The notes beneath the pieces are model-generated. The model worked only from the letters and a program-made list of their open reading frames with translations, made no database searches and had not been told where the DNA came from. A DNA stretch of 64,000 bases from IMG/VR virus record IMGVR_UViG_3300003690_000024, positions 31,397-95,396 of that record; one strand, 5' to 3'. Numbering within the stretch: position 1 is the stretch's first letter; each line of letters opens with the position of its first letter. The translations under genes were made by a program, and so were the position numbers. This DNA is from a virus. Of the stretch, positions 13,315-63,636 are shown one piece after another.

Positions 13315-15108
13315 ATGCCTAAAAAACTACAACCCATTAACTATACAAGCCGTGACTTTGATTCTATTCGCAGAGATTTAGAAGATTACGCAAAAAGATA
13401 TTATCCGAATACCTTTAAAGACTTCAATGAAGCATCATTCGGATCATTGATGCTGGATACTGTATCGTATATTGGCGATATTCTTTCCTTTTATTTAGAC
13501 TATCAAACAAACGAGAGTTTTCTAGAAACGGCGGTCGAATATGAGAATGTCGTGCGCCTTGCGCGCCAGATGGGATTTAGATTAAACACAAGCCCCTCTT
13601 CATTCGGGGTCCTCACTTTCTATGTTCAAATCCCATCCCTCACTAGTGGGCCAAACCTTGCGTATGCTCCGGTACTTAAGGCTGGCTCTGTGTTCTCGTC
13701 GACTGGAGGAGGCCTTTACACACTACTGGAAGATGTCGATTTTGCTAAGAGCAATAATCAAATCGTGGCCGGCCAGATAAATTCCGCAACTGGGTCGCCC
13801 TCAACCTTTGTTATCCGTGCAGTAGGTCGCGGCGTCTCTGGCCGCGTTGTGGTGAAAGAGATCGATATCGGCGAATTTCAAAGATTTACTAGAGTTCAGC
13901 TAGAGACTAGTAACGTGGCAGAAGTTCTTTCTGTTGTGGACTCCGAGGGTCATGAGTATTATGAGGTAGATAATTTATCCCAGAATGTAATTTATAAGTC
14001 CATCCGCAACACAAATACCTCCACCAATGCAACTGTGGGCAATATTCTTAAAGCCACACCGGTAGCTAGAAGATTCACGGTAGAAAGAAACAATGATGAA
14101 ACTTATTTACAGTTCGGATATGGATCAGATTCGGAGCTATTATCCAATTCGGTGGTCGATCCTGCTGATGTTATTATGGATCTCAGCGGCCGCACATATA
14201 TTACTGATCGAGATTTTGATCCCACCAAACTGATTAGTAGCGACAAGTTTGGAATTGCTCCTTCTAATACCACGTTGATTATCAACTATCGTGTAAACAC
14301 CCTAGAAGATGTTAATGCCGCAGTAGGCTCAATTACTCGTGTTGATGGTCCAATATTTAGATTCACTGATCAGAGCGCCCTCTCCGTTGGCCTTCGAAAC
14401 ATTTCAATAACTTCGTTAGAGGTTACTAATGAAGAGCCCTTTGTTGGTGACATTTCGCTTCCCGATTCAGATGAAATAAAACAGCGTGTATTTGGCTATT
14501 ATGCTACGCAGCACCGCGCGGTGACAATTCAGGATTACCAATCAATTGCTTATGGAATGCCCACTAAGTTTGGAGCGATAAAAAGAGTCGCAGTCGTTAG
14601 GGACTTCGATGAATTTAAGAGAAATATAAACCTATATGTGCTTTCTGAGGATACTAGCGGTAAGTTTACAACAGCTAATATAACTCTTAAAAATAATTTA
14701 AAGACCTGGATCTTACAATATAAAATGATTAACGATACCGTTGATATTCTAGATGCGGTAATTGCTAATTTTGGTATAAATTATGTGGTTACTTTAGATT
14801 TAGATGCGAACAGATATACGGTGATCAACAAGGCCAATGCTGCGATCGCTGCACATCTTCGTAAGAATATCTATGCCATTGGTGAAGAGATACTCATCAC
14901 TGACTTTTATAAAATTTTACAAAAGATAGAAGGAATCATAGACGTGATAGATCTGGAAGTTGTTGGAAAGTCGGGAGTAAGTTACTCAGATCTAGACTAC
15001 GATTTTGAAGGGAGTCTCGCGGCGAACGGCCGCACGATCCTCGCCGCAAAAAATGTTGCATTCGAGCTGAAGTTTCCGAATATAGATATCAAAGGATCTA
15101 TTCAATAA
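13315..15108 (+). CDS. Baseplate wedge subunit gp6-like
   Basis: INYTSRDFDSIR, YIGDILSFYLD, ESFLETA, LQFGYG, QHRAVTIQDY; follows gp25. Confidence 0.88.
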   Translation: MPKKLQPINYTSRDFDSIRRDLEDYAKRYYPNTFKDFNEASFGSLMLDTVSYIGDILSFYLDYQTNESFLETAVEYENVVRLARQMGFRLNTSPSSFGVLTFYVQIPSLTSGPNLAYAPVLKAGSVFSSTGGGLYTLLEDVDFAKSNNQIVAGQINSATGSPSTFVIRAVGRGVSGRVVVKEIDIGEFQRFTRVQLETSNVAEVLSVVDSEGHEYYEVDNLSQNVIYKSIRNTNTSTNATVGNILKATPVARRFTVERNNDETYLQFGYGSDSELLSNSVVDPADVIMDLSGRTYITDRDFDPTKLISSDKFGIAPSNTTLIINYRVNTLEDVNAAVGSITRVDGPIFRFTDQSALSVGLRNISITSLEVTNEEPFVGDISLPDSDEIKQRVFGYYATQHRAVTIQDYQSIAYGMPTKFGAIKRVAVVRDFDEFKRNINLYVLSEDTSGKFTTANITLKNNLKTWILQYKMINDTVDILDAVIANFGINYVVTLDLDANRYTVINKANAAIAAHLRKNIYAIGEEILITDFYKILQKIEGIIDVIDLEVVGKSGVSYSDLDYDFEGSLAANGRTILAAKNVAFELKFPNIDIKGSIQ

Positions 15109-16637
15109 TGAGTATTTTCAGATATACAGCTAGCGCCGACAACACTATTACAAATGCATTCACAGCTAATCTGCTTGAAATTAACCGTGGCTCAGGGTCA
15201 AACATGGGATATGCGGATGCTTTAGAAATTTTTTCCATTTATGGGCAAGCCTCCTCATCCGCGGGCCAAACTCAAGAACTATCACGAGCGCTAATTAACT
15301 TTTCGACAGCATCTATAGCGGCAGACAGAACATCCGGTAAGATTCCGGCTTCTGGCAGCGTATCCTTTTATTTGAGGGTCTTCAACGCGCGAACCCCATT
15401 TACTCTTCCTCAAGATTTTACATTAGTCCTCGCGCCCGTTTCTCGTTCGTGGGTTGAGGGAAGCGGCCTCGATATGGATGAATATAAAGATCTTGGAAAG
15501 TCCAACTGGATGTCCGCAAGCACTACAACGGCATGGACCAGTGTTGGAGGGGACTATCGCACAGGTTCCAATTATGAGGTAGTCTTCCCGCAGGGATATG
15601 AAGACGTAGAACTTGACGTCACCGAGTTGATGGAAAGGTGGCTAGCTGATGAATTTGAGAGTTATGGGTTTGGCGTTCGTCTCACAGCGAGTCAAGAAGC
15701 ATATTACTCCGGCTCTTCGGGGGTAGACACGGGCAGCCTAATTCAGAATACTGATGGTGCAACACAATCATACTATACGAAAAAGTTCTTTTCCAGATCC
15801 ACTGAATTCTTTTTTAAGAGACCAGTTATTGAAGCCAGGTGGGACTCTAGAATTAGCGACGATCGAGAGAACTTCTACTATTCTAGTTCTCTAGCTCCTT
15901 CTCTAGAGAATCTTAATACCATCTATCTTTATAATTACGTGCGCGGGAAGCTTGTCAATATCCCCACCATTGGTACGGGCCCAGTATATGTTTCTTTTTA
16001 TTCTAGCTCCAATAACGTTCCGACAGCCTCTGCAATTAAGCTGTCTGAGGGCGGAGATGTTGTCGCGGCCCTAGATATAAATGCCACAGGTGGCTATGTG
16101 AGCACCGGTATTTACTCCTGCTCGGTTGCCTTAACGGCCGCATCTACACCCTTTGCGCTGGTGCACGATGTATGGAGTAATTACAGCGGCACAATTCAAT
16201 TCTACACGGGATCTATCTATCCAGAATTGATGCCAACTTATGATTCGGCACCTAGCTTCAGCCGCATAACGTCTTGTAAGAATCTTAGAAAGAAGTATTC
16301 TAATCAAGAGACCGCGCGTTTTAGATTTTTTGTGAGAAATAAAAATTGGAGCCCAACGGTGTATACTGTTTCGACTACCAACAATCCAACAGACATTATA
16401 CCAAGCGCTTCATATTCAATTTTTAGAGTAACTGACAACTATAATGCAATTCCATATGGCACTGGCTCTGATTTGAGTACATATTTGTCCTATGATAAGG
16501 AGGGGAATTACTTTGACTTAGACCTATCTTTGCTAGAACAAGACTACATGTATGAAATTAGATTAGCATACTACAATGATAGCATCGGCTCATGGCAAGA
16601 ACAGCCGCAAACGTTTAAATTTAGGGTTGAAGAATAA
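15108..16637 (+). CDS. Putative structural/baseplate protein (beta-sandwich, DNRLRE-like)
   Basis: SRALINF, ELDVTELMERWL, GFGVRL, KKFFSRST..RPVIEARW; translationally coupled to gp6-like gene. Confidence 0.6.
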   Translation: MSIFRYTASADNTITNAFTANLLEINRGSGSNMGYADALEIFSIYGQASSSAGQTQELSRALINFSTASIAADRTSGKIPASGSVSFYLRVFNARTPFTLPQDFTLVLAPVSRSWVEGSGLDMDEYKDLGKSNWMSASTTTAWTSVGGDYRTGSNYEVVFPQGYEDVELDVTELMERWLADEFESYGFGVRLTASQEAYYSGSSGVDTGSLIQNTDGATQSYYTKKFFSRSTEFFFKRPVIEARWDSRISDDRENFYYSSSLAPSLENLNTIYLYNYVRGKLVNIPTIGTGPVYVSFYSSSNNVPTASAIKLSEGGDVVAALDINATGGYVSTGIYSCSVALTAASTPFALVHDVWSNYSGTIQFYTGSIYPELMPTYDSAPSFSRITSCKNLRKKYSNQETARFRFFVRNKNWSPTVYTVSTTNNPTDIIPSASYSIFRVTDNYNAIPYGTGSDLSTYLSYDKEGNYFDLDLSLLEQDYMYEIRLAYYNDSIGSWQEQPQTFKFRVEE

Positions 16638-16644
16638 TTAAGAT

Positions 16645-19600
16645 ATGAGTATTAAGAAATATTTTGAAAATGTTTCAAATATTAAAGCTCTCTCTGGTAA
16701 AACTTCTCATGATATAGGCGGACAAGTTGAGTCCGCAGAGTACCATGAACAGGATATTATCAATGAGGAGAGGTTTATTCCTCATGTGGACTTCACAAAG
16801 CCAGAGAATTTCGCAAAATATGGTTCAGCCGAGGAGTATTATTTTACTGCGCTACAAAGGATCTATAGTACCTATCCTTATGATGGATCACTGAAAGAAC
16901 GACTAGAGTGGCAAAACCAGTCCACATACTTAGATCTCTATATTTATGACAATCGATACCCGCGCACGAACGGTTACATTATTTTTTCATCGGCTTCTTG
17001 GGGCACACAGCAAAGCACCACCGATGGCTACGGACTATCAGATACTCTTGAATATATTTCTTTCGAGGGCGGCCCAAACAAAAATCCAAACGGTCTAACT
17101 CCATCGAGAATTGAATTTACAGGTTCAAACTATTATGAAGTAGCGATGAATCGGCAGTCTAATCTGCAGCTGGATATGGCTACGGATGGTGCTTCTGTTG
17201 AGTTCTGGATGAAGAAAGATGCCTTTGATACAACCAAGACTCAAAAAGAAGTTATTTTTGACCTTTGGAACGGTAAAGGTTATGCAGCACCGGACTATGC
17301 TCGCCTTACAGTTGAGCTAACCAGCTCTACTGGTCACGCCATCGCCGGCGCCGATCCGTTCCGGCTCACGATATATTCCGGCGCGCTTGGGTTCCAAACA
17401 GCATCAGTCTGTTCCTCAAATTTCACTACGGCTTCTGTTACCGATGGAAAGTGGCACCACTACGCGTTCACGCTCAAGTCGGCATCGGCCGGCGTACAGA
17501 GTCGCTTTTATGTTGATGGTGAACTAGAGAACGAGGCTACTATCCAGACAACCGGCAGTGCCCTCGGCGCCGCGGCAGGCATTAATGATATAGACTTTTA
17601 TGGTATGCGTGCCACCATTGGCGCGCTGGCAACAAATCCGTCTGCGTCCACTGCGGCCACCGGCTCTGGTAAGTTATCTGCATCTCTTGATGAGTTCCGA
17701 TATTGGAAGACACAGAGAACAGGTGAACAGATTGGTCGGTTCTGGTTTACACAAGTTGGCGGTGGTGTTAATACTGACCCGACTCCATTTATTGAGACGA
17801 AAGAAACAGCTAACGTTAATTTGGGAGTTTATTATAAGTTTAATGAAGGTATTACGGGTGTTACAGCTACCGATCGTACGGTATTAGATTATTCTGGTCG
17901 TTTTTCCAATGGTGTGTGGACCGGATATACTAGTGGCGCGCGTAATACTGGTTCCGCTATTGTCCTTTCTGACGCTGCTATTAAAGAATTTAAAGATCCA
18001 ATTATTTATCCCTTCCATCCCGAGGTACATGATCTCATCCACGCTCTTCGTTCTAGTGGTTCGGCGTACGATGTTAATAATAATGCCTCAATTTATAATT
18101 CTATTCCAAGCTGGATTATAGACGAGGACCAAGAGGGTTCCGGCGATGTTAAGAAATTAACCCAAATTATTTCGAGTTATTTTGATACACTGCAAATGCA
18201 GATTGAGAATTTAAACAAACTTAAGGATATTGCATACATAAGTGGAAGCAACAAGCCGTTGCCGTTTTCGGAAAAGCTCTTAAGTTCCTACGGATTCGTT
18301 GCTCCCGAACTCTTCCTCGATGCGGATATTCTTGAAAAACTTGCAAATCGAAGTGAAGATAAGGTTTATGAAAAGTCGCTGGAAGATATTAAAAACATTA
18401 TCTACCAAAATATTTATAACAACTTAAGTTACATTTATAAGTCAAAGGGTACGGAAAAAGCATTTAGGAACCTTATTCGATGCTTTGGAATCGATGATGA
18501 GCTTATTAAAATAAATATGTACGCCGACGGCGTTGAATACAATCTCGATAGTGATCGCAGAAACGTAATTGTTACTGATCGCTATATTAATTTTAACACT
18601 GTCAACAATAAGGTAGGAACAGTATTCAACTATCAGGATCATACTAATTCGGTGGGCTTCATAACCTCTAGTACGGTACTCTCTGGAGGGCACTCGATTA
18701 CTTTAGAAACTGAGTTGCTTATGCCACTTAAGCCTCTAGCTTCCTCAATTACTTATATCGACACCAACACAATCAGCTCTTCCTTGTTTGGCGTGCATGG
18801 CGTGCGCGAAATCATCACCGGCCCTAATGATACACAGTGGCCGTCAGGAAAGCATTCAGATGCCGTTAACTTCCAAGTGTACGCCGTCCGTGACGAGATA
18901 GAGTCGACTAATGCTAGGTTTGTTTTGACCGGAACTGCTGGTGGCTATGTGCCCTCTCTGAAGAGTTCTCTATATGAAAATATCTATGATAATACTAAGT
19001 GGAATATCTCAGTTAGAGTGCGCCCTCAAAATTATCCCTTAGCTAATTTTGCCAGTGCATCTAATAATGGTAATTTCGTTGTAGAATTACATGGTGTACA
19101 GGCCGAATCCGGCGAAATTCTTCAAGAATTTACCCTTTCTGGCACTGTTACTAACCCGACTGGTTCTTTTATAACTGGTAGCCGCCGCGTTTATATTGGC
19201 GCCCACCGTACAGATTTTACATCTTCGCTGTTAGAGCCGTCGGATGTAAAAGTGAATGCGTGTCGTTATTGGCTTGATTATCTTGATGACGAGATTCTAA
19301 AGGCTCATATCTTAGATACCGAGAATCATGGTAATCTGCTAACGCACCAGTATGCATATACTTTCAATCCGTCTGCGTCGGATGGTGATATCACAAAATT
19401 TGACACTCTAGTTTTTAATTGGGAATTCCTGAACAATACTGGATCTAACGCCAGCGGCCAATTTACTGTTGAAGACGTTAGTTCTGGGTCTGTCAATCTT
19501 ACTCGTTTCGGTTCTCTAGGAAAGATTCTCAACCAGCAGTACACTGCTTTGGGTTATGATTTCGCCACATCTTCGGTGACGCCTATTGATAAAGACTTTG

Positions 19601-22600
19601 TTGTTTCCTCCAAACTAAACCTTCCCGAGAATATCCAATCAACAGACATGGTAAAGGTTCTAACAGCGCAGGAACGGGATATATTCACCCGAGATACACG
19701 TCCTATTAACTACTATTTTGCCTTCGAGAAGAGCATGTATCAGGTGGTGTCTGAGGAAATAATTAATTATTTCGCTAATGTTAACCTATATCGACCCGAA
19801 TATAAATCATTAAAATTCTTAAGACAAAAGTTTTTTGAAAAGGTTGCCAACTCTCAATTAGACTTTGATAAGTTCTACGAGTTTTATAAGTGGTTTGATT
19901 CATCGCTATCCATAATGCTCAATCAGTTGGTCCCTGCATCCTCTGATTTCTCGGATAGTGTACGAACGGTTATAGAAGATCATGTTTTGGAGCGTTCAAA
20001 GCAACGCCGTATTTTCCCATTCTTAGAGAGAAAAGGGGCCACCGATATTACTGGTGCTGTCGAGGGTGGTGGTGATGCTTCTGCGCAGGCTTCCCCCCAA
20101 GACTTCCCGCCTGGTTCTGGGTTCTTTTCTAATACGGCTTTTACAAAGCGTCAGATTGGGTCGTCAAACACAATTCAGATTGATCCATGGAAGCATGTGC
20201 ATGCTCCCATAGATCATGTACCGGCTATTCCTGGACATGCAAAATCCTTAGAGTTCTCAAAGGGCGGCATCGCTGATCACTACGTTGATATAGGAACTAG
20301 TGCCACGTGGGATGCACTCATCGGAGGCTCCGGAACCGACACCAAAGCATTTAGTTTGTCTGCCTGGGTTTATATGACAGACCAGGGCGGATCCTCCCAA
20401 GGCACTATTATTTCCTTTTCCCAAAATGATCGAGTAATTCATTATCACAGCGTTGGCGGTGGTAGATATAAGTTTTATATGGAGGGCGCCACCAATGGCG
20501 ACAAATGGTCCAACGACGGCTCGGCCGTATTTGACACTTGGACACACATTGTTGCAACCTATGAAGGGGGCACCGCCGGCGATCTGAAGATATATATCAA
20601 TGGATCGGAACAGACCGCCATCGCGCAGACTTCGATTTCCAACCCAGACGCCATCGATGGCAGCGATTGCTACATCGGCGCGCGAGATGACGGCGTCAAC
20701 GCTGTAAACGAGTGGGAGGGAAATATCTGCGATGTTGCTGTATGGGGCAAAGAGCTAAACTCTACTGAAATCACTGAGCTTTATGGTTCGGGCAAAAGAG
20801 TTTATCTTATTGGTCCGAGGCAATATATTCTGCCGCCGCTGCCTTATCTGGATCTTTTGTCCTGGTGGAGGATGGGGTCAGACTCTCGCGATACCTACAA
20901 CGGCCTGATGTACGATCAAATCGGCGGCAGGGACGGAACGCCTACTAACTTTTCCGCGGGGGAGATAACCACAATCTCCCCAGAGTTTCGAGATCCTTAT
21001 GGCTGGGCTCCTGGAATTCCCGGTCTGCAGGGGGTTAATCCAAATGCAAATATATATTGGCATCGGTATAGAGAAGAAAGGAGTTCATCTGTTAGAGTCG
21101 AGCTGCTTGCTGCTATTAAAAAATCTTATGATAGACGCGTTGGATCTCCTGCAAAATTCTCAGTTGAAGGAGCAGTCACCTTCGGCGGTGTTGCCCGTCA
21201 TCAAAGTAATCAGCCCAACTATGTTTTTAGGGAAGTCGCACCCCTTCCGGGCGCCTCGGGCTCGCTCACAAATATTCTAGTTACACAAAAGGCAGATGTT
21301 GAGAAACTGCTCTCATCTTCATCGGATGTTTTCTATCCAAGTCTTAAGCAACGTTTGGGATTCAATATGAATCCAGACATCAATACCGACGAGCCGAATG
21401 ATCGAACCCTAGATGGAAATGTGTATGCTCCGTTTAGTATGTATAGCTCCTCGGTAAGCGGCGGATATGCCGCCACTGTGTCTAGTTCTTTTACACCTGG
21501 AGTAGATATTACCAACTTGCATCACGACTATGTGTTCAATCACGATATTCCCATGCAATCACCCTTCACCGAAAAGTTTGTGGGGGGACGTCAATATAGG
21601 CATCTTCCACTTAATAGAAGCTCCTCCTTGCGCCGGCTGGATACGAACAACTCCCGCGGCGAGGCCTTCCGTATTAAGTTTGATGGTGTGGCTTCTAGGG
21701 ATGGGGGCAATTTCTCCAACTCGCTCGCCATTATACCGGCTGATTCATCCGGTTCCGCAACCACGCGCGACTTTCCCACTGCTGTTCGATTCCGAGACGA
21801 AACTGCAAAACGCCCCGTAAACATTAAAAATATTTTGATGTCAACCGCGTCGCTAGACATAAATCTGTCCGGTACCATTATGCATAGCAATATTGGAAAC
21901 TACCAAAAGAATTATCAAGTTGTTCAAACCTCGGGGCGCACAACTAATGATTTGTACTTCCGCGATCAAACAATGACTTTTTCTACGGCGAGCTGCATTC
22001 CTTTTATTCGCCGTAGGACCACCGACACGGAAGGATTTGAGGGCGTAAGATGGCCTCTTTCACTATTGCGAGATAAGGTAGTTACGACGAAATCCTTTTA
22101 TAGCTCCGGATCCAAGGGCGTCGACGAATCTATCTCTGCACTTCGCATCCCCTACAACAAAGCGTTCGATACCGGAGGAGAGGACGTCAATAACGGAAGT
22201 ACGGGCTTTACTTTTTCCTGTTGGTATTCAGCCTCGGCCGACATGTCGAGCATCGGCGTGAACCGACCTTTCTTTTCACATGGTGTGGGCACATTTCACA
22301 GTCAAAACGTAAATGGGTATACCCCCATTAGTGTGCTTGATTGGGTCGAGTGGACGCCCAAACTAAGGTATACTCGCCTGGCTACGACGGAGACTGGCGC
22401 CGACGCCGAAGTCACGAATATGTATGAGGTGTATACAACCTTAGAGTTGATGACAGGATCTCACATTGAGGGATGGAACCATCTTGCTTTAACTTTTCAA
22501 CACTCGGGTGCGGTGGATGTAGGTGCCGCCAATTGGACTACCTATGTGTATCTTAATGGCTCTAGATACACGTTTAGTTATGGAAATTCTCCTGGCAACG

Positions 22601-25600
22601 CCAGAGCCTATCCTATAGTCAGCGGGTCAGTCTATACTACTACTACCGCCTCCTATGGACAAGATCTTACTATTAAATCCTATTTTAATGCAGATGCCTA
22701 TCAGGTCCCCGCGGGAGACCATGCGGCCTATCGAAATGGTGTCAATGGCAACTTGGACGAAGTATCGTATTTCAATTCGGTGCTGACTCCGCTTCAAATT
22801 GTACAGCTTTATAATCTTGGATGCCCAGGAGATGTCAATCTTCTTGGCGCCACGGGATGGTGGGGGATGGGCGAAAGCACCAGCGGCTCTTCTGCCGACC
22901 TTACAACGGCCGCGGCAAACGGCGGCTTTTATATACCAGATCGTACAGACAACGGATACATCGGTTTAATGACCGGATCGTTCTCAAACACAAAGACGGA
23001 CGACGAATACGACTCAGGCAGCATCCGAGCACAAATTCCGTGCCTCATCACGCTGCCCGATACTCGCTACTTAGACTTCTTGCTCCCCAACAGAGAGGAC
23101 AAGCTAGCACGCTCTAACAAGACGGTCATTGTAAACCGGTTCAGTTCTCCTGGATCATTTGAGGTTTCCTCCCGCGGGTATACAATTCAGCCAGCCGAAG
23201 AACTTTCGCCCTACAATGCAGCACCATATCGCAATAGAATAGTAATCAGTTATGGCATGACTGGATCGGCATCCGCGGATCCTATTACCGTTGTAACAAT
23301 CTCGCCGCGCGACCAGATCGATAAGCCTCGTGGTTTAAATCAACTTTCTACATTACATGCAGGACAATTCGGATATGACTATGCTTATGGTTCTATCCCA
23401 ACCGATACTTACATAACTATTCCTTCCTACCAAAAAACAAATAGAAACAGAGTTCTACAGATGGTGTCTGGCTCGGGACACGATGCATACTTTACTGGAT
23501 CCCAGTATGACAACCTCTTCATCCAACACGCGATCCCTCGATCAACACGACAATATAGTTGGGTAACTGCATCGTTGCCCCTAAACAGTCAAATATATGG
23601 TTTAGAAGCGGAATCATGTATCAGCGCTTCTGTTCTTCAGACTGTGACCAGCTCTGGTCGTGTTGTGGGGTTCCCCCTAGGGAACGTCCGCCAGAAAGCT
23701 ATATCCAGCCCCCCGCTACCCTACATCCACGGCAGCGCACCCTATGACATAACCTCGGGATATGGGGTGTACACTGCTTTTGTCGACGCCAATCTGCAGG
23801 GCCCCGTCGGTGCTCGACCGATAAATATGGCGGATCATACTCTTTATCGACCACTGGGCGCCTTTAACAGGCGTTCTCTTTATATGTCTGGCACAAATGA
23901 GACTAATTATAATTCGCATATTTTCATTGGCACAGCTGCTAAGTGGGATAACTTAATCGGCGGTAGCGGCGACGATGCAAGACCATTTAGCATTTCATTT
24001 TGGATGAACGCAAGGCCACAAGATAACCTTTTCCCACGAATTGTGGATTTCTCTTCAGATATGATCATTACACTCACTCAATCGACCGGCAATCCGACGA
24101 CTGCCTACGAGCTTGGCTTTACAATTTACGGAAATGGAACAAACGGCACAGTTCAAACAGCTGGAAAGCTTAGGTATGGGGACTGGTATCACTTTGTGGC
24201 AACTTTTGACGGGGGAGATCCCGAAGGGGAGGACAGCGTCAAGGCCCAGCGACTCTACGTTAACGGGATAGAACAAACTCTAAAAATCAACACCCTTGAT
24301 AACCCGAAAGGTTTTTATGGATATAGTTGTTATGTGGGAAATGGAGTCGGCTGGGCAACTGGAGCGGGCAGAAACTACGTAGGAAATCTAGACGAGGTTC
24401 AAATTTATACAGCGGCCGTGAATGTAGACCAAGTTGGTATTCTTTATAATCATTCCACGCCGGCCGATCCGTATTTATTGGCAAAAGATAATCCAGAATT
24501 TCAGGACATCGCCGATTCTTTAGTAGCGTGGTGGCGCGCCGGGGACAGAGCAACCGGTGTGTATGGTTATGATGGTTCCATCTCCGAGCATCCCAGCGGG
24601 GCTATTCTGCATGATCATTCCGGTCACAACAACGATGCAGTGATCGGACTAGGGAGCGCAGCCGTCTCCGGCCACCCTGCATACTTTACTCTCACCTCCT
24701 CCGTTCCTGGCAATTCAGCCGGCTATTCCTTCAACACGATGATGCTGAACCGCAACGGTCCATACGGCTGGCCTACTTGGAAGCAAATTCGCGCCGGGGA
24801 ACACCCTGTTGCGCGACGAATGCGACAGCAGAACTTAATTGGATCTGTATTGCCTCCTCCGTTTATCGCCGGCGACGCCGGTATTGGGGGCGTTCTCGGC
24901 CTTAGCCCGATTACGTTCGCTGACTATTATGAATCACCAGTGAATGATTCAAATCTACCCATTAATTTTATTTTTGAGGACAACACTGACGATGCAGATT
25001 CGGCCAACAACATGCAAGTTACTGTTCCGTATGCCAATCAGTTCGAATATTTTTCTCACAATGGGCTAAACAACCTCCTAAATCTTAAGATAGATACCAC
25101 ACGTCGTCGAGCTTATAATTCGGTTTTAGATTATGCAGTCCAAAGCAATTTGAGTTTGGTGGCCAATTATGGTCAGCGAGTTTATCCTTCAGAACGAAAT
25201 GCTTATAAGGGCACTATTCGTGGAAGGACCAAATATAACATTACGACCATCTGGTACGACGATCGCTCTACCAGGACAGCCGAAACACTTCAAAGTAAGG
25301 CTTCGTGCTCTATGGGCTATAGGCGCGTGCTATCTCAAAGTATGTGGCCGCTGGACGGACACAACAACTTCAGGACTACATCTTCACTGGCGCGCCCGTC
25401 CCATAATGATGGGGCGGGAGAGATGCTGGCTAGTTATACCTGCTTCACAGGATCCACCGTCTCCAGCTCGGCCCGATATACAGCGTCTTCTTCAGCGACA
25501 GCAAATCCAGGCATCCCCGCGTCCCCGAACCAATATGCGGGCCCAACGTACGCGCAGCGAATTTATGGCGGCGCGACTTTGACTGATAATTATCCTATTT

Positions 25601-56301: not shown

Positions 56302-56317
56302 AACAAGTTACACGGAT

Positions 56318-56343: not shown

Positions 56344-56751
56344 ATGGCAACTTATAGTTATAAGCCGGGCCTTGGAGCTGCTGGCGCATACCAAGTCGCA
56401 GGCACCCCATATGTGAGCGGGAACATTGACCCCACACACGCTGAGATAAAGTTGGACTTCCCTGGGGTAACTCAGTGGGTGGTGGTGCAGAATCCCGCCG
56501 GCGCTGATCTTAAGGTGGCGTTTTCTTCAAACGGATTGAAATCAGATAAGTCTTATTACTTTACACTTCCGGCTTCTACTGTGTCGCCGAGATTTGAGGT
56601 TAAAGCTACACAGCTTTTTTTGTCGGGCGGCGCCGCGGGAGTTTCGGTGATGGCTGGCTTAACAAGTATTGATACTATAACAATAGATAATGCCTCTGTT
56701 TCTCCATCGGGCTCTAATTGGTCTGGGTCACTTGGAGCCTTGGTGGGTTAG
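56344..56751 (+). CDS. Hypothetical small beta-rich virion protein
   Basis: Candidate late motif and GGAG upstream; SGSNWSGS tail. Confidence 0.68.
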   Translation: MATYSYKPGLGAAGAYQVAGTPYVSGNIDPTHAEIKLDFPGVTQWVVVQNPAGADLKVAFSSNGLKSDKSYYFTLPASTVSPRFEVKATQLFLSGGAAGVSVMAGLTSIDTITIDNASVSPSGSNWSGSLGALVG

Positions 56752-56780: not shown

Positions 56781-59642
56781 GTGTCTGATCCAAAAAATAA
56801 ATGGAACCAACCCGCGGCTCCTCCTCCCCCTATGTTTTTGGGGAAGAAAGAACGCGACCTTGTTAAGCAAGTCAATGATGAACTCGCTGAACGCGTCGTT
56901 GGACAGACTATTGCTTATTATCCAATAAGCATTGAAGATTCTAATTTTAATGAAACATACGGCGAAGCGATAGAGAAAGTTTCTCTGCCGCCGATCCGCG
57001 TTCATGCATATGTAATTGTTGAAAACGAACAAACAAATGATCGTTATGGTTACGAATATCAAAGTAAGTTAACGATTAATTTTCACCGCAAGAGACTAAC
57101 AGAAGATCAAAATCTATATGTTCGCGTTGGTGATTTTATTCAATATGGCGATATTTTTTATGAGATTGTAAAAACTTATAATGATACACGTTATTACTTT
57201 GGACAAGTAGAACACAAATTTCAAATAAGTGCTGAATGTGTGAGGGCCCGCGAAGGGGTCTTCCGCGTTATGCCGGCCGTCGACCGCCCCACCGAAGTTA
57301 CCAGAGACGTTAGCCCAGCAGAATCTCCAGCCCCCCGCGCTGCTCCCTATCCTCCAGCCGGCGCCTCATATGTAACGGTGAACGCAGAGAGAAAGCTCCC
57401 GAACGAGCGGGTGCTTACGGCTGGTAGCAACATAGTGTTTACAGACGGGGGCGCGGGCGGTTCTCTTACCGTAGCCACTACGAGTGAGTTGACAGCGAGC
57501 GACATGCGCGTTACGGGCGACTTAACGGTTGTTGGGAGTCTTGTCGGTGGTTCTCCTATTAGAATCGCCGGAGGTGTTGAAATTCTAAATCCAGCCGGCG
57601 AAGTCATTGCGGCTTTGGGGTCGAGCAGCGCTGGTGCTGATGTTCTTTCGGCTAGTTTAGCGGTCGTTACTCAATTAACGGCTTCGGATCTTGTGTCGGC
57701 CAGTATGTTTTACGGCGACGGCTCACAACTCGATGGTGTTGTGAACTCACCCGCGGGCTCAACCACAGAGATTCAGTTTAATAGTGCTGGCTCTTTTGCG
57801 GGATCTTCCAATCTTACGTTTAACGGAACAACCTTAACTGGCTCCTATACGGGATCTTTGGCACAATTTACTGTTCTATCGGCTTCTGGCGTAAATGTTG
57901 GGGGCGTCGTATCTGGATCGGGCCTTTTTTCAGCAGCTGGCGGCATTAATGTGGCTGAAACGTTTACAGTTAGTGCCGCCGGCGCAGTTGTTGCTTCTAA
58001 CACTATTTCTGGTTCCGGCGCCTTAAGTGTTGGTGCTGGTGCAACACTTGCTGGTGCCTTAAACATGCAGCAAGGCGGCATTACAAATGCTGGTGCTATT
58101 GCTGGCGCAAGCACGATCTCTGGTTCTGGCAATCTCTCAGGTTTAGGGCTTGCCCTCAATGGCGGCACTTGGAATGCCGGCGGCACAATTTCTGCTGATA
58201 CTCAAGTTGGTGCTCCAACGCTGACCGACAACACCTTGTCGATTAGCAGCGGCGCGATTACTGGTGGAACATCGTATTCTGGTTCGACAACGATCTCAGG
58301 CCTCAGTCTCGCGCTGAATGGTGGTAATTGGAGTGCTGCCGGTGTTATTGCAGCGGACAGCAATATTACAGCTGGCGGTACGATCTCTGGATCGTCGACG
58401 CTGTCAGGTCTCGGCATCACGGGTACATCCTTAAACGTACAATCTGGAGGTATTACGAATGCGGGGGCTATCGGGGGAGCCACAACCGTATCAGCCTCCG
58501 TGGGTCTAAGTGGTTCGGCTCTATATGCCAGCGACGCATATCTTGATGCGGTTGTGCTGCAGGCGCTTTCGGGTACCTTAGCGGGTACAGGAAGTTATTT
58601 GGGCCTCGACGCCAGCAATAACTTGGTCCTAACCTCGTCTGCGGCCGGCCCTGCTGGATCAGGCGACCCCGGCGGATCCACCACAGAAGTACAGTTTAAT
58701 AGTGCGGGGGCTTTTGCGGGATCTTCCAATCTTACTTTTAATGGGACAACTCTGACAGGATCTTATACGGGATCGCTAGGACAATTTAGTGTTTTGTCGG
58801 CCTCCTTGATAAGCTTGGGAGCAACTTCCGGCTCACTGGCAGGAGCAGGAAGCTATTTGGGTCTTGATACAAGCAATAATTTGGTTCTTACTTCGGCTGC
58901 CTCGACAGCTGGTGACCCGGCGGGCTCTGATACGGAGGTACAGTTCAATGATGGGGGATCTTTTGGGGGATCTTCAAACCTTACCTTTGACGGCACGTCG
59001 CTGGGAATTGGTACCGATAGTCCCACTTATACTCTTGATGTTGCAGGAGACGCCGGATTTAACGAATACCTCTATCACAATGGAGATACAAACACTTTCA
59101 TCCGATTTGTACCTGATAGGATGTACATTGAGGCTGGTGGAGAAAACATGCTCTACCTCGTCTCAGGTAGCGGAGGCGACCAAAATGCCAAAGTTACAGT
59201 TAATAATGACGGCGTCGATGTCGATTTTCAAGTTAAAGGCGACAATGAGGCTAACCTTATCAGAACAGATGCTGCAAATGATATGGTGGGAATTGGCACA
59301 GCGAACCCCTCGCATACTTTAACGGTAGCCGGCGACTCGTATCTTTCGGGCGCCATGGTTCATAAGAGAACTGCTATTGCGACGCATTACACCGCATCTG
59401 CTACTGACTATATTATAGGCATAACATCAGTCCCCCTTTCTATTGAATTTAATGCAACTGTTTTTAATGATGGCCAAGTCGTTGTTGTTAAAGATGAGAG
59501 TGGTAACGCTTCTGCTACAAGTGTGATTGCCATAAGTGGCGCTTCTACACAAACAATCGACGGCGACGACGACGTGGCCATTAGTTCTCCATATGGCTCT
59601 ATATTGCTATATTGTAATGGAACGAACTGGTTTATTTACTAG
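56781..59642 (+). CDS. Neck/head-completion-like N-terminal domain fused to Gly/Ser/Thr-rich fibre repeats
   Basis: N-terminal YYP....N..YGE...K, VRVGDFI.Y....YEI resemble T4 gp14-type neck proteins; fibre modules QFNSAGSFAGSSNLTF, VGIGT..P. Confidence 0.6.
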   Translation: MSDPKNKWNQPAAPPPPMFLGKKERDLVKQVNDELAERVVGQTIAYYPISIEDSNFNETYGEAIEKVSLPPIRVHAYVIVENEQTNDRYGYEYQSKLTINFHRKRLTEDQNLYVRVGDFIQYGDIFYEIVKTYNDTRYYFGQVEHKFQISAECVRAREGVFRVMPAVDRPTEVTRDVSPAESPAPRAAPYPPAGASYVTVNAERKLPNERVLTAGSNIVFTDGGAGGSLTVATTSELTASDMRVTGDLTVVGSLVGGSPIRIAGGVEILNPAGEVIAALGSSSAGADVLSASLAVVTQLTASDLVSASMFYGDGSQLDGVVNSPAGSTTEIQFNSAGSFAGSSNLTFNGTTLTGSYTGSLAQFTVLSASGVNVGGVVSGSGLFSAAGGINVAETFTVSAAGAVVASNTISGSGALSVGAGATLAGALNMQQGGITNAGAIAGASTISGSGNLSGLGLALNGGTWNAGGTISADTQVGAPTLTDNTLSISSGAITGGTSYSGSTTISGLSLALNGGNWSAAGVIAADSNITAGGTISGSSTLSGLGITGTSLNVQSGGITNAGAIGGATTVSASVGLSGSALYASDAYLDAVVLQALSGTLAGTGSYLGLDASNNLVLTSSAAGPAGSGDPGGSTTEVQFNSAGAFAGSSNLTFNGTTLTGSYTGSLGQFSVLSASLISLGATSGSLAGAGSYLGLDTSNNLVLTSAASTAGDPAGSDTEVQFNDGGSFGGSSNLTFDGTSLGIGTDSPTYTLDVAGDAGFNEYLYHNGDTNTFIRFVPDRMYIEAGGENMLYLVSGSGGDQNAKVTVNNDGVDVDFQVKGDNEANLIRTDAANDMVGIGTANPSHTLTVAGDSYLSGAMVHKRTAIATHYTASATDYIIGITSVPLSIEFNATVFNDGQVVVVKDESGNASATSVIAISGASTQTIDGDDDVAISSPYGSILLYCNGTNWFIY

Positions 59643-59705: not shown

Positions 59706-62609
59706 ATGGCATATAAATTTCAGAAAGGGACAGCAAACCTTTCAGGATCAATTAAATTAGACTCAGGATATGATCTCCTCGGCGCCGGATCCAACGATCT
59801 CGGCACGAGTGCTGCAAATTTTGCGGTAGGTTATGTTTCTATAGTCAGCGCTAGTACAGTAGTTTCTGGCGCATTCTTTGAAGGTGACGCATCCAGAATG
59901 ACAGGGATTGCCGCTACTGACGTTACAACAACTGGTACATCTACCGACGCGACTTACTATCCGCTTTTCGTTGATACCGCAGCTGGTGAATCTGGAGAAA
60001 CTGTTCGAGTTCACTCTACAGTTGCGATTAACCCGGGAACGGGTCTACTGTCCGCAACGACAGTGAGTGCCTCAACAGGTACAGGCAGCTTCGGTGGCGG
60101 CATTAGTGCCGGTAACGAAGGATTTACTGTTGGTTACACGGGCGCAGTTACGGCAACAACTATCTCTGGTTCTGGTGCTTTAAGCGTTGGTGCTGGCGCA
60201 ACTATGGCTGGTGCTCTTAACATGCAGGCCGGCGGAATCACCAATGCTGGTGCGATTGCTGGTGCAACAACTGTTGCGATGGGGGGCGCCTTCACCGGCG
60301 CAACCACGATTACTGGCTCAGGCGCTCTAAGCATCGGTGCTGGTGCAACACTTGCTGGTGCTTTAGACATGCAGCAAGGGGGCATTAATAATGCTGGTGC
60401 GATTGCTAAGGCAACAACAATCTCCGGCTCTGGTGCTCTAAGTGTCGGTGCTGGTGCAACACTTGCTGGTGCTCTTAACATGCAATCTGCAGGGATCACC
60501 AATGCTGGCTCAATCGCCGGCGCAACAACTCTTGCGATGGGCGGTGCACTTACGGGTGCAACAACGATGTCTGGCTCCGGAGCTGTTACGGTTGATAGTA
60601 TTACATTAGGCGAGGACTATAGTATTAGCAGCGCCGGCGCAGCTTCCGTCGCTTCTGTCAACGTCAATGCAGGCGGTATTACTAACGCTGGTGCAATCGC
60701 TGGTGCAACAACTATTGCGATGGGCGGCGACCTTACTGGTGTGTCGGCCCTTTCGGCTTCGGGAGGAATCACTGGATCCCAGTTCTCCATCCGCGACCGC
60801 GGTCTGTCCCCGACGGGAAACGACACACAGTTCTTTATGGGGACTGCAACTGTTGGTGGTGGTACTAACATTATCAAAAGTTATGGAAGCACGTTGTTAA
60901 TTGAAAACGAAGCGACTGGAGCTTCCGGGGACACGAAGCCCATTCTGCTTCGACTGGGAAGTAATGATGCATACACTGCTGTGAAGATTAGAAATGCCTC
61001 GAACAGCGACCTGTTCTATGTGGATGGAACCGGCGCCGCTTCTGGGTCATCAACCCTTTCGGCTCTTGGAATTACGGGTACCTCTCTTAATGTTCAGGCT
61101 GGCGGAATCACCAATGCTGGCGTTATTGCTGGTACTACATTGCTTACGGCCTCTACGGGCTTGAGTGGTACAACTATTTACGCCAACAAGCTTTTTGGTG
61201 ACGGTGCTGGTATCACTGGTATCTCGCTCTCAAATGCAGATACTGTAGACGTTACGTCTTCGACAAGTAATGTGACCTACGGACTAGTCTTTACGCAGGG
61301 CGCACAGACTGATGGTGGTTTGGGGCTTGCGCTCCAACTTACTGGTGCGACTTTCAATCCAGCGACTGCTGAACTTTCTGGATCTGGTGCCCTTTCGGTT
61401 GGCGGTGGTGCAACTATGGCTGGTGCGTTGAACATGCAAGCTGGCGGAATCACCAATGCTGGTGCGATTGCTGGCGCAACCACTGGAGCGTTTTCGGATA
61501 CACTGACCGTAGCGAGTATCACCAGTTCGGCTGGTTCAACTCTGAGTGTCGGTGGTGGTGTAACTCTTGCTGGTAACTTAAATGTGCAAGGTGGGAATAT
61601 TGAAAGCGCAGGCACAATCTCCGGTTCTGGTGCTCTAAGTGTCGGCGCCGGCGCAACTATGGCTGGTGCTCTTAACATGCAGGCCGGCGGAATCACCAAT
61701 GCTGGTGCAATTGCTGGTGCAACAACGATCTCTGGTTCTGGTGCTGTTACGGTTGATAGTATTACCTTAAACGGTGATTATAGTATTAGCAACGCTGGAG
61801 CGGCCGTTGTCGCTTCTCTTAATGTTAGTGATGGTAATATCACAAATGTTGGCGACATCAACTGCGACTCTGTTAGTGTTGATGATTCAGCTGTTGGCCT
61901 TAATATTGACTTTGGAGGCACTACAGGACTCAACAAGATTAGTCTTACTGATAATCTTGCAGATGCTCTTAACATTACGCAGGCTGGTAACTCTTATATC
62001 AAGCTTGTTACGACGGATGATGAGGAAGCGGTCGTCCTTGGTTACGATCTCCAAATTCGTGATGGTTACAACATCGCGGCCAAAGGGGATATGGGGATAG
62101 ATATCCGCCAGGCAACCACTGGTCAATCTGGTCTGAGTATGACTGATAATTTGGCGTCTGCCTTTTACATTCATCAGGGCGGCACTAGCTATCTGAAGTT
62201 TGTCACAACAAATGATGGTGAGCAAGTGCTCGCTGAGAAGGACTTCATAATCGGTGCTAATGTTAATTCTGATGTAGTTCTCGGTATTAACGGGCCAGTC
62301 GACTTTTATAGCCAGAAACTGCTTACTGCAAGTGTTAATCTTGATGAAGACGCGTCGTCTGGTTTTACGCACTCGCATACCCACTACATTTGCAGTGGTT
62401 CGTCTGCGATAACGATTGACTTGCCAGCGCTTGAAAACGGTGCTTCCTTGTGGGTTAAGCGTCACCCGAGCATGACAAATAATGTTACGCTTTCTCCGAG
62501 TGGATCAACCCACTTGATTGACGGCCTTAATGATCCCGTTGTTCTGGAAACAGCCGGAGCATCGTTGCAGCTTGTTGCATCTGGTTCCTTGAACTGGTAC
62601 ATCTACTAA
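59706..62609 (+). CDS. Fibre/whisker-like repeat protein
   Basis: AGGAGG SD; repeated SGSGALSVGAGAT.AGALNMQ.GGITNAGAIAGATT; C-terminal IDG...NWYIY module. Confidence 0.7.
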   Translation: MAYKFQKGTANLSGSIKLDSGYDLLGAGSNDLGTSAANFAVGYVSIVSASTVVSGAFFEGDASRMTGIAATDVTTTGTSTDATYYPLFVDTAAGESGETVRVHSTVAINPGTGLLSATTVSASTGTGSFGGGISAGNEGFTVGYTGAVTATTISGSGALSVGAGATMAGALNMQAGGITNAGAIAGATTVAMGGAFTGATTITGSGALSIGAGATLAGALDMQQGGINNAGAIAKATTISGSGALSVGAGATLAGALNMQSAGITNAGSIAGATTLAMGGALTGATTMSGSGAVTVDSITLGEDYSISSAGAASVASVNVNAGGITNAGAIAGATTIAMGGDLTGVSALSASGGITGSQFSIRDRGLSPTGNDTQFFMGTATVGGGTNIIKSYGSTLLIENEATGASGDTKPILLRLGSNDAYTAVKIRNASNSDLFYVDGTGAASGSSTLSALGITGTSLNVQAGGITNAGVIAGTTLLTASTGLSGTTIYANKLFGDGAGITGISLSNADTVDVTSSTSNVTYGLVFTQGAQTDGGLGLALQLTGATFNPATAELSGSGALSVGGGATMAGALNMQAGGITNAGAIAGATTGAFSDTLTVASITSSAGSTLSVGGGVTLAGNLNVQGGNIESAGTISGSGALSVGAGATMAGALNMQAGGITNAGAIAGATTISGSGAVTVDSITLNGDYSISNAGAAVVASLNVSDGNITNVGDINCDSVSVDDSAVGLNIDFGGTTGLNKISLTDNLADALNITQAGNSYIKLVTTDDEEAVVLGYDLQIRDGYNIAAKGDMGIDIRQATTGQSGLSMTDNLASAFYIHQGGTSYLKFVTTNDGEQVLAEKDFIIGANVNSDVVLGINGPVDFYSQKLLTASVNLDEDASSGFTHSHTHYICSGSSAITIDLPALENGASLWVKRHPSMTNNVTLSPSGSTHLIDGLNDPVVLETAGASLQLVASGSLNWYIY
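60160..61735 (+). repeat. Dispersed ~110-bp coding repeat (about five full copies, plus one at ~58000-58110)
   Basis: 59-bp identical stretch at 60195-60253 and 61650-61708. Confidence 0.85.
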
Positions 62610-62648: not shown

Positions 62649-62683
62649 AAGGGTGGGTATTCTTCGGGGTACCCACCCTTTTT
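62649..62683 (+). terminator. Intrinsic terminator with cUUCGg tetraloop
   Basis: AAGGGTGGGTATTC-TTCG-GGGTACCCACCCTT followed by TTT. Confidence 0.88.
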
Positions 62684-62695
62684 GTATTCAGCTTT

Positions 62696-62702
62696 CTATT
62701 TA
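62696..62702 (+). promoter_or_regulatory. Candidate late promoter CTATTTA
   Basis: Immediately after terminator, 4 bp before ATG 62707. Confidence 0.55.
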
Positions 62703-62706
62703 ACAT

Positions 62707-63636
62707 ATGGCGTACAAGTTTAGAAAAGGTGCGGCAGGTTTATCGGGATCAATGACCACCGATGATATTGCTTATTTTTATGATACGGACACCAAACTTG
62801 ATTGGGACAATGATTATATAAGTCTTCAGACGGGGGGCAATAATGTCTTGACGGTTAGCGGGTCGACGGTCGGGGTCCTTGACACCGCTCCGGACGGGTA
62901 TGCTCTTTCTGTTTCCGGCAATGTAGGATTTGCTGAGTATATCTATCACCAGGGCGACGATGATACTTACATCAGATTTGAAGCTGATAGCATAAACATA
63001 TATGCTGGCGGCAGACAGATGATCAAAATGGTAGAAGGTGCCACGGACAAAATTACAATCAATAATGGAGGCCAGGATCTCGATCTTCAGATTAAAGGTG
63101 AAAATGAAGCCAACCTTATCCGAACGATTGCAGCAGATGACAGCGTGGGTATCGTCGCAAATGCACCTAAGATTACTTTAGATGTACATTATACGGGCTC
63201 TGGAGATCCTATAAACCTTGGAAATGACACCGGTGGTGGTGAGGTGGTATTTTTTGGAACTTCCTCAGCCGCCATGGTCGCGGGAGGTATCTATTATTTA
63301 AATACAGATGGGGGATGGCAATCAGCGGATAGTGCAACCACGGGAAGCGGCCACAAACAGTTACTGGGGGTGGCTGTGGGTACCAAGGCCGAAGACGATG
63401 GCGTACTGATTAGGGGATACTTCGATGTAAATACCTTTTATTCCGGCTCCTTCATAAAGGGAGGTCCCATGTACATTCAATCCAGCAGCGCCTCCCGCGC
63501 TGCTACCGCAGGCGGCTATCTAAGCGGGGCCGCTCCCACGGCCGGCGATTCATATGTTAGAGTTGTGGGGTATGGCACAGATACAGCCAATGTAATTTAT
63601 TTTAATCCGGATTCTACGTATGTTGAGATCGCATAA
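62707..63636 (+). CDS. Fibre-related virion protein, N-terminal paralogue of 59706 gene
   Basis: MAYKFRKG...LSGS vs MAYKFQKG...LSGS; shares DTYIRF...KGENEANLIRT module with 56781 gene. Confidence 0.7.
   Translation: MAYKFRKGAAGLSGSMTTDDIAYFYDTDTKLDWDNDYISLQTGGNNVLTVSGSTVGVLDTAPDGYALSVSGNVGFAEYIYHQGDDDTYIRFEADSINIYAGGRQMIKMVEGATDKITINNGGQDLDLQIKGENEANLIRTIAADDSVGIVANAPKITLDVHYTGSGDPINLGNDTGGGEVVFFGTSSAAMVAGGIYYLNTDGGWQSADSATTGSGHKQLLGVAVGTKAEDDGVLIRGYFDVNTFYSGSFIKGGPMYIQSSSASRAATAGGYLSGAAPTAGDSYVRVVGYGTDTANVIYFNPDSTYVEIA

Follow-up and report, generated by a model that had tools for sequence, protein, structure and literature searches.

An ordered [S/T]-[G/A/S]-S tripeptide is in excess in putatively outward-facing virion proteins of a Far-T4 phage clade, plausibly for attachment of a phage-made sugar coat

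We have analyzed a stretch of 64,000 nucleotides from an uncultured virus (IMG/VR record IMGVR_UViG_3300003690_000024, positions 31,397 to 95,396), referred to here as the window, which is the last 64 kb of the 95,396-bp viral contig and carries almost every gene on a single strand. Several tail proteins encoded there contain the tripeptide [ST][GAS]S (Ser or Thr, then Gly, Ala or Ser, then Ser) far more often than their composition predicts. This observation, first made by eye in an earlier note on the sequence, is confirmed, and the interpretation given there, a glycosylation site, is partly supported. The excess is strongest in phages where a clade-specific pair of GT4-family glycosyltransferases is intact, so the motif plausibly serves the attachment of a phage-made sugar coat. 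Judged by its portal and terminase, this uncultured, marine, T4-like phage is a member of the Far-T4 group. It was compared with Microcystis phage Mel-JY01, Flavobacterium phage immuto, Rhodothermus phage RM378, the uncultured 484-kb phage LR756508 and a complete 193.8-kb relative, G001; the present phage is called G000 where it must be told apart from these.

The motif was counted in 35 open reading frames (ORFs) and compared with 1000 composition-preserving shuffles of each whole protein, and a second null was obtained by shuffling inside 15-residue windows. The 509-amino-acid (aa) protein has 16 sites where 3.9 are expected (z 6.4), and the 3132-aa protein has 55 where whole-protein shuffling predicts 13.4 (z 11.8) and local shuffling 17.0. 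The local shuffles hardly reduced z (6.5 for the 509-aa and 10.2 for the 3132-aa protein), and local low complexity was rejected as an explanation since the excess is kept. Enrichment reaches 4-6x in the 509-aa, 3132-aa and 413-aa proteins and in the 309-aa protein at 62707-63636, and 2-3x in the 787-aa protein and two fibres. The 21 other ORFs, when pooled (8,724 aa), show no excess (13 vs 12.1), and no enrichment was seen in the gp6-like wedge, a 972-aa protein, another 309-aa protein (at 35326), the portal or the protease. A 1050-aa SbcCD-like protein has no site and the terminase has one, but these counts tell little because the expectation is 0.8 for each. The four apparent sites of the second epimerase gene (2000-2953) are one SSSSS run.

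Much of what had been counted by eye was accurate. The estimate of about 15 sites in the 509-aa protein agrees with our count, the near-empty nuclease and terminase were borne out with the proviso just given, and the enrichment persists under the composition-preserving shuffles that had been proposed as a check. The dozens of sites claimed for the LamG and fibre proteins are present (55, 23 and 21), although one LamG-bearing stretch is empty and many of the fibre sites belong to a repeat. Among the several sites announced for 36267-38553, those of the 413-aa protein are a clear excess, whereas those of the 211-aa protein are not significant (Table 1). The statement that the motif saturates virion proteins was too strong, as shown by the unenriched proteins listed above and by the lack of any marked head protein in the window.

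The signal depends on residue order. In the 509-aa protein, [ST][GA]S was found 13 times against 1.9 expected, vs 2 against 2.0 for [GA][ST]S and 1 against 1.3 for [ST][GA]T. The same-composition permutations [GA][ST]S, [GA]S[ST] and [ST][GA]T are at about 1x in the window proteins; order specificity is weak in the 787-aa protein. When all tripeptides were ranked without bias in the non-repeat proteins, TGS (22 vs 3.7), SGS, SSS, GSG, TAS and SAS came out on top, and a mirror test in the present phage gave 52 T[GA]S vs 19 S[GA]T. Flanking residues are also selective: aromatic residues are enriched at position -2 (30 vs 14), position -1 has an excess of hydrophobic residues and a deficit of charged residues and of Asp/Asn (2 Asp vs 6.4 expected), and no site is followed by Pro. 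The codons used vary from site to site, and nearly each site is a different 9-mer. The signal is therefore at the protein level, and a DNA-level motif was rejected on the same grounds.

BLAST showed that the three fibre proteins are mutually related, while the other enriched proteins lack similarity to each other. Common ancestry of the enriched proteins was thus rejected, and the earlier statement that ancestry does not explain the sites holds for most of them but not for the three fibres. In the 953-aa fibre, the sites lie mostly inside an internal repeat of the type ..TTISGSGALSVG... At 56781-62609, two fibre paralogues share a repeat ..(A/T)TTISGSGALSVG.. with a spacing of 36-50 residues. 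In the 3132-aa protein, sites occur in domain-specific patches, with none at approximately 1051-1479, a LamG-bearing part, and one at 2401-2850. Both of these nearly motif-free stretches are Ser/Gly-rich, and they may be buried or ligand-binding parts of the protein.

To see where the sites sit, we used structural models and alignments. An AlphaFold2 (AF2) model of the 509-aa protein (predicted local distance difference test score, pLDDT, 63) places 15 of the 16 sites in loops or where a strand or helix ends, and one site is a two-residue hairpin tip at 7-9. A sequence search of the PDB with the 509-aa profile gave no match, Foldseek of the model gave only Ig/FN3-like matches with low template-modelling scores, and tblastn of the protein against 50,697 phage records gave no match. 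The AF2 model of the 413-aa protein (pLDDT 49.5) is too poor to use. The tail sheaths of G001, immuto and Mel-JY01 were aligned to T4 gp18. Outside the aligned parts they contain 36 sites vs 10.7 expected from the composition there, and the conserved core contains 2 vs 1.6. The conserved C-terminal part of gp18 forms the inner layer of the sheath and its variable domains face outward. The major capsid proteins of the relatives likewise have 15 sites vs 6.4 outside their core and none inside. In G001 and the window, counts are flat in the portal, terminase, protease, gp6-like wedge and approximately 150 non-structural ORFs. From these alignments and assignments, the excess appears confined to outward-facing parts of the virion: the baseplate periphery and fibres and, in relatives, the outer sheath and part of the capsid protein.

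The sites are conserved at short range and turn over at long range. The 509-aa family has more than 4,600 metagenomic matches, and 119 homologues (66-89% identical) have a mean of 14.6 sites vs 3.4 expected. At least 13 sites are held in position, with swaps within the motif (TAS/TGS/TSS, SGS/SSS/SAS and T/S at position 1); one column, for example, is TAS in 55 and TGS in 48. The final Ser of the motif is kept in 87% of residues vs 57% for other Ser and changes to Thr in only 2%, and Asp or Asn makes up 1% of position 1 in these homologues. The 413-aa family is similar, with a mean of 10.6 sites vs 2.7 in 120 homologues and conserved sites. Among more distant relatives, the sheaths of immuto (10 sites) and Mel-JY01 (11 sites) are 42% identical and have a single site in common; their capsid proteins, at 61% identity, have 3 and 5 sites and none in common. 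Such turnover at a kept density is expected of a tag selected for its density and not of a fold signature.

The excess extends to other members of the clade. Of the 174 ORFs scanned in G001, only those of the tail block and its neighbors are enriched: the homologues of the 509-aa protein (15 vs 3.7) and the giant protein (77 vs 21), the 382-aa homologue of the 211-aa protein (11 vs 2.5), the 413-aa homologue and fibres, the 984-aa tail sheath (17 vs 4.4) and, mildly, the capsid protein (7 vs 3.3). The cultured phages immuto and Mel-JY01 show an order-specific excess in genes syntenic with those of the present phage, and in RM378 the excess is weaker and found in fewer proteins. In LR756508, of which the first 400 kb were scanned, the 509-syntenic protein is not enriched (1 vs 0.5), the giant protein (6 vs 2.5) and the capsid protein (1 vs 1.1) have few sites, and one 576-aa protein is clearly enriched (9 vs 1.4). 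Five clade genomes pooled gave 491 [ST][GA]S vs 118 expected (4.2x), a ratio inflated in absolute terms by choosing the ORF sets by the motif itself, which leaves the contrast with near variants unaffected. These variants were close to expectation: [DN][GA]S 74 vs 69 (1.07x), [ST][GA][DN] 1.12x, [ST][GA]T 1.26x, A[GA]S 1.05x and [ST][GA]A 1.31x. A charged residue at the middle position is avoided ([ST][charged]S 0.37x), as is Pro (0.67x). The T[GA]S/S[GA]T counts in the five genomes were 52/19, 61/18, 50/14, 35/12 and 14/1. Outside the clade, 22 virion proteins of T4 have 24 sites vs 25.9 expected with flat long fibres, the virion proteins of P-SSM2 and RsoM2USA show no order-specific excess, and in HTVC008M all permutations alike are raised to about 2x, a sign of low complexity and not of residue order. 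These four phages rule out a general property of phage tails. Avoidance of the motif in non-virion proteins, considered as a signature of a promiscuous enzyme, was not seen (ratios 1.1-1.3) and is uninformative.

Genes for a glycan are present in the same phage. An 18-kb glycan island begins approximately 15 kb upstream of the window, and the NeuB gene and two epimerase genes at 3-2953 are its 3′ end. Its order is GT4 (423 aa), GT4-like (696 aa), GT2, a second GT4, a carbamoyltransferase and a methyltransferase; then a UDP-sugar dehydrogenase (Ugd), a GT11-like protein, a HAD phosphatase, a nucleotidyltransferase and three ORFs without a family; and finally a B12/radical-SAM methylase-like protein, a cytidylyltransferase (CTP_transf_3; CMP-sugar synthetase), NeuB and the two epimerases. 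The phage thus encodes five glycosyltransferase-family ORFs as well as sugar-nucleotide enzymes, upstream of the window and at its start. None of the 18 island proteins has transmembrane-like segments, and Pfam detected no flippase, polymerase or oligosaccharyltransferase family among them.

Only the first two genes of the island are conserved. This tandem pair lies at contig positions 16170-19532, 12-15 kb upstream of the window, and its members are 68% and 57% identical to their counterparts in G001 and approximately 33% and 30% identical to those in immuto and Mel-JY01. Both paralogues keep the E-x7-E motif in G000, G001, immuto and Mel-JY01. In RM378 the pair is divergent, the second gene being weakly similar and having lost the second Glu of E-x7-E, and in LR756508 GT4 is present and GT4-like is absent throughout the 484 kb. 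The motif follows this series, with a strong excess where the pair is intact, a weaker one with the degraded pair of RM378 and a weak one with the lone GT4 of LR756508. The correlation with glycosyltransferase content that the earlier note had asked for is thus graded, albeit mostly within one clade. The sugar genes that it had singled out (6-2953) do belong to a large soluble island, but NeuB and the epimerases are part of its non-conserved tail and do not track the motif: a NeuB homologue is absent from G001, immuto, Mel-JY01 and RM378.

The GT4 gene is restricted to these phages. Tblastn found it in 7 of 50,697 phage records, namely four immuto isolates, Mel-JY01, LR756508 and RM378, all in the clade. 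A scan of 185,579 prokaryote genomes gave 14 loci, and all four examined were Far-T4-type phage fragments under unrelated names of metagenome-assembled genomes (MAGs), with no genuine cellular genome among the examined matches. The four fragments (L165, L170, L171 and L176) share a conserved block of PhoH, an M90-like ORF, a PD-(D/E)XK nuclease and GT4, followed by GT4-like in the two marine ones, and the present contig has the same block upstream of the window (PhoH/PIN, a 206-aa M90-like ORF, PD-(D/E)XK nuclease, GT4 and GT4-like). The MAGs that contain clade phage fragments bear the names Pelagibacter, Woesearchaeota, Maricaulis, Flavobacteriales and Marinimicrobia, among others. One such fragment is part of the “complete chromosome” of a WOR-3 bacterium (CP070664.1), where GT4 is cut short after approximately 315 residues. 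Faulty binning or assembly probably accounts for these misfiled fragments.

The 696-aa GT4-like protein had no sequence match in the PDB. Its C-terminal 297 aa (400-696) have no counterpart in the G001, immuto and Mel-JY01 orthologues and are similar to separate viral proteins of approximately 280-316 aa, some with Glycos_transf_1; the long form recurs in L165 and L171. These comparisons suggest that a third, small transferase-like module has been fused to the protein.

The hosts of the clade span Bacteroidota, Rhodothermota and Cyanobacteria, and the pair is a core gene pair of the clade. Its retention across hosts of at least three phyla points to a substrate intrinsic to the phage. In immuto, liquid chromatography-mass spectrometry of a DNA digest detected canonical dA, dC and dT together with fdPreQ1 (formyl-preQ1 replacing dG) and no glycosyl-nucleoside (PMC10516641), which argues against DNA as that substrate.

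Based on these observations, the motif is most simply explained as a short linear site that some clade-specific factor recognizes, because it is ordered, excludes Asp/Asn and Thr for Ser, tolerates Gly, Ala or Ser in the middle, is maintained through turnover, is found only on outward parts and is limited to one clade. Since T4, P-SSM2, HTVC008M and RsoM2USA have no such excess, the reader is expected to act in trans. The GT4 pair is our candidate for this role as the sole clade-specific enzymes found that fit. We tentatively favor sequon-directed cytoplasmic O-glycosylation of [S/T]-[G/A/(S)]-S virion sites, to which we assign a little less than an even chance. The fuller proposal, in which an [S/T]-[G/A/S]-S sequon is read by the phage-specific soluble GT4 pair and coats the outward tail and, in part, the sheath and head with glycans that vary among lineages, is put forward with slightly more caution. 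Under this proposal, the soluble, phage-specific pair of retaining GT-B transferases would recognize the motif, usually preceded by aromatic or hydrophobic residues, and would O-glycosylate its Ser/Thr in the cytoplasm, either ahead of virion assembly or while it proceeds. The glycan would then be extended by the rest of the island, which varies among lineages and here comprises GT2, GT4, GT11-like, Ugd, carbamoyl- and methyltransferases, B12/radical-SAM, CMP-sugar synthetase, NeuB and epimerases; in the present phage the glycan might contain a nonulosonic acid with carbamoyl and methyl decorations. We infer the action of the pair on the sites, the acceptor residue and any function of a coat, and a role for the glycan as a shield would be purely conjectural. 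The earlier note had proposed a selected modification site; what stands is a selected, ordered, protein-level feature of virion proteins unrelated in sequence, whereas modification is our interpretation of it.

Several observations weigh against O-glycosylation by this pair. A literature search revealed no clade member for which a glycan, mass shift or staining has been reported, and a search for glycosylated tail fibres or an [ST][GAS]S sequon gave nothing relevant. The 423-aa GT4 is a generic member of its family, with BshA/MshA-like proteins as its best PDB and NCBIfam matches and a weak match to chlorovirus B736L, and it has no specific match in these databases to any known protein O-glycosyltransferase family. 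The pair is linked to nucleic-acid-type genes (PhoH and the PD-(D/E)XK nuclease) and not to tail genes, an arrangement that would also fit a nucleic-acid role. Co-occurrence of transferase and motif is essentially limited to one clade and is confounded by descent, and the graded contrast depends on two genomes, RM378 and LR756508. Non-virion phage proteins do not avoid the motif, as a promiscuous cytoplasmic enzyme might drive them to do. A few columns of the 413-aa family have Thr at position 3, and the motif is integral to structural repeats of fibres (..SGSGALSVG.. in the present phage). In the immuto fibres, many sites are [ST]-A-S-[Y/F] units spaced 6 or 9 residues apart, a three-residue register resembling a fibrous repeat.

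The last of these points bear on a structural role, which we consider unlikely but the most serious alternative. The hydroxyl-small-hydroxyl triplet could close beta-strands or hairpin tips, or build the beta-repeats of trimeric fibres, with the transferase pair serving some other purpose. The loop and strand-end positions of 15 of the 16 modelled sites, including the hairpin tip, would fit this role, as would the aromatic and hydrophobic residues at -2 and -1, which suit a strand end, the regular spacing within fibre repeats and the good retention of sites at short range. Turn motifs are universal, however, yet the four phages outside the clade, rich in beta-sandwiches and fibres, lack an order-specific excess. 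Asp and Asn, the usual turn-formers, do not substitute in the motif (1.07x for [DN][GA]S; 1% of position 1), and the free exchange of Gly, Ala and Ser at position 2 indicates that no special backbone angle is needed. A structural role is also difficult to reconcile with positions that turn over at kept density, even at 61% identity, and with enriched proteins that have no detectable sequence similarity.

A different clade-specific reader is improbable in our estimation. It could be an enzyme of another covalent modification (phosphorylation, acylation or ADP-ribosylation), an assembly chaperone, or a weakly bound host or environmental polysaccharide. An ordered, surface-restricted enrichment within one clade calls for a partner acting in trans or a shared ligand, aromatic residues beside hydroxyls resemble sugar-binding patches, and several clade-specific genes have no assigned function. 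Nevertheless, none of the clade-specific ORFs scanned with Pfam matched a kinase or acyltransferase family, the only clade-specific enzymes in the compared set are the GT4 pair and the PD-(D/E)XK nuclease, and we know of no precedent for a three-residue ligand-binding element spread over unrelated folds. Finally, an artefact of composition, low complexity, internal repeats or DNA-level bias is highly improbable and close to refuted: the enriched proteins are Ser/Thr-rich (10-13% Ser), repeats inflate the fibre counts and low complexity alone produced the twofold values of HTVC008M, but the excess outlasts both kinds of shuffle, same-residue permutations are flat, the mirror asymmetry is 3-14 fold, codons are diverse and the signal is strongest in non-repeat proteins.

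If the sites are O-glycosylated as we suggest, the system would be classed with phage-encoded virion glycosylation. Mycobacteriophage virions are reportedly O-glycosylated by phage-encoded glycosyltransferases. There, as here, the proposal is that soluble enzymes encoded by the phage glycosylate structural proteins within the cytoplasm. The mycobacteriophage system has been demonstrated experimentally and targets capsid and tail-tube subunits of siphoviruses of Actinobacteria, whereas the present one is known from sequence, and its putative targets are the baseplate, fibres and outer sheath of Far-T4 myoviruses, with dispersed tripeptides in folded domains and a clade-restricted transferase family.

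Among bacterial systems, GtfA/GtfB of serine-rich repeat (SRR) adhesins and SdgA/SdgB of Ser-Asp repeats are similar in being cytoplasmic, GT4-family pairs of GT-B proteins that act on Ser in short Ser-x-Ser-type repeats (SAS..) and are followed by extension enzymes. Unlike GtfB, which is non-catalytic, both phage paralogues keep EX7E, and so the GtfA/GtfB arrangement does not apply. The NCBIfam model for GtfA did not match the pair and that for SdgA matched at 16 bits, far below the cut-off. The phage targets are globular virion domains and not the long disordered repeats of SRR adhesins. Flagellin glycosylation by Maf or FlmG is likewise cytoplasmic and acts on surface-exposed Ser/Thr of a self-assembling structure, and NeuB and CMP-sugar synthetase genes are present here. 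A 2025 review (PMC12645811) describes hydrophobic residues upstream of flagellin glycosylation sites, notes that Maf enzymes have no known sequon and contains no O-glycosylation sequon of the [ST][GAS]S form. In contrast, the present motif is sharp, NeuB is not conserved among motif-bearing relatives, and a Pfam search of the island ORFs (three of which have no family) gave no Maf/DUF115 domain, which sets the phage apart from Maf/FlmG systems.

The earlier note had stated that the motif differs from the N-x-S/T and Bacteroidota D-S/T-x sequons, and our comparisons agree with it. All are three-residue patterns with positions 1 and 3 on the same side of an extended chain and a constrained middle, which in the present motif avoids Pro and charged residues. 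Unlike the Bacteroidota sequon, D-(S/T)-(A/I/L/V/M/T), the present motif is depleted of Asp at -1, and the Bacteroidota system is periplasmic and host-encoded, while the hosts of the present clade span several phyla. Unlike N-x-S/T, whether read by N-glycosyltransferases (NGT/HMW1C) or oligosaccharyltransferase (OST), position 1 does not accept Asn or Asp (1.07x, compared with 4.2x for the motif). The motif also differs from Asx/ST-turns, in which Ser, Thr, Asp and Asn are interchangeable, and it shows no excess in T4, P-SSM2 or RsoM2USA.

In oceans and lakes, the Far-T4 group ranks among the most abundant of the T4-like phages. If O-glycosylation at these sites is true, it would be the first case of sequon-directed virion glycosylation among phages that infect Gram-negative bacteria and cyanobacteria, and virion glycosylation would extend beyond mycobacteriophages and giant viruses. 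Adsorption, aggregation, resistance to proteases and grazing, and sticking to organic matter could all change for such virions, and viral metaproteomics would miss the modified peptides. The tripeptide and the enzyme pair would also provide a compact cytoplasmic O-glycosylation tag for glyco-engineering. Since three clade members are cultured (immuto, Mel-JY01 and RM378), the hypothesis is directly testable.

Besides a T4-type portal and a large terminase, the genes of the window specify a gp6-like baseplate wedge (Table 1), an SbcCD-like nuclease and a protein with a lysozyme domain. Pfam matched Portal_T4 (E 1.7e-77) and Terminase_6N. The nearest portals among the 50,697 phage records are those of Mel-JY01 (43%), LR756508 (41%), immuto (38%) and RM378 (32.5%), and both portal (gp20) and large terminase are of T4 type and nearer to RM378-type phages than to T-even or cyanophage T4-likes. 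The Far-T4 group was defined by Roux et al. 2015 (PMC4360716), whose paper mentions no glycosyltransferases, tail proteins or motif; the string “glycosyl” occurs 0 times. No Pfam or PHROG family was found for the proteins of 15108-40003 and 56344-63636, except for LamG domains in the 3132-aa protein. We predict that they are baseplate-periphery and fibre proteins because of synteny with T4 gp6 and the genes downstream of it and because of fibre-like repeats.

Table 1. Window features discussed in the text; baseplate, tail and fibre roles are predicted. Counts are [ST][GAS]S sites observed vs expected.
Feature	Coordinates	Strand	Remarks
NeuB-family nonulosonic-acid synthase	3..764	+	Pfam PF03102, E 1.9e-62; 5′ end upstream of window
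Two overlapping NAD-dependent sugar epimerase/dehydratase genes	1066-2073, 2000-2953	+	Pfam PF01370/PF16363
gp6-like baseplate wedge subunit, inner baseplate	13315..15108	+	PHROG 219/10646; 1 site vs 1.6 expected
509-aa baseplate-periphery protein, modelled tandem beta-sandwich domains	15108..16637	+	16 sites
3132-aa giant baseplate/fibre protein, LamG (ConA-like) domains	16645..26043	+	Pfam Laminin_G_3; 55 sites
787-aa tail protein	26069..28432	+	moderate excess, 9 vs 3.4, z 3.1
350-aa tail protein	28440..29492	+	weak excess, 4 vs 1.3, p 0.03
211-aa tail protein	36267..36902	+	3 vs 1.2, not significant
413-aa tail protein	37312..38553	+	11 vs 3.1
135-aa ORF	56344..56751	+	two SGS near C-terminus (translation)
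953-aa fibre protein	56781..59642	+	23 vs 8.6; 11.7 expected by local shuffling
967-aa fibre protein, paralogue of 953-aa protein	59706..62609	+	21 vs 10.0
309-aa fibre-associated protein	62707..63636	+	8 vs 1.2, z 6.6

Some further observations concern the relatives and the gene starts. The gene directly before the major capsid gene is clade-specific (LR756508 170106-171836, G001 41984-43132, immuto 125582-126823), and its product, which is the 576-aa protein mentioned above, is the most motif-rich protein of LR756508; it is possibly a capsid decoration protein. The fibre proteins of immuto (97614-100775 and 135031-136152) have approximately 60 and 17 sites. A late-promoter link between island and tail genes was considered and rejected, since CTA[TAC]TTA precedes many genes of every class, including the island radical-SAM gene, and so does not discriminate. 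The element CTATTTA/CTAATTA is found 10-45 nt before many ORF starts (window 13296, 35301, 56318 and 62696; contig 1203, 13190 and 28945) and looks like a general promoter or start-region element that is not late-specific.

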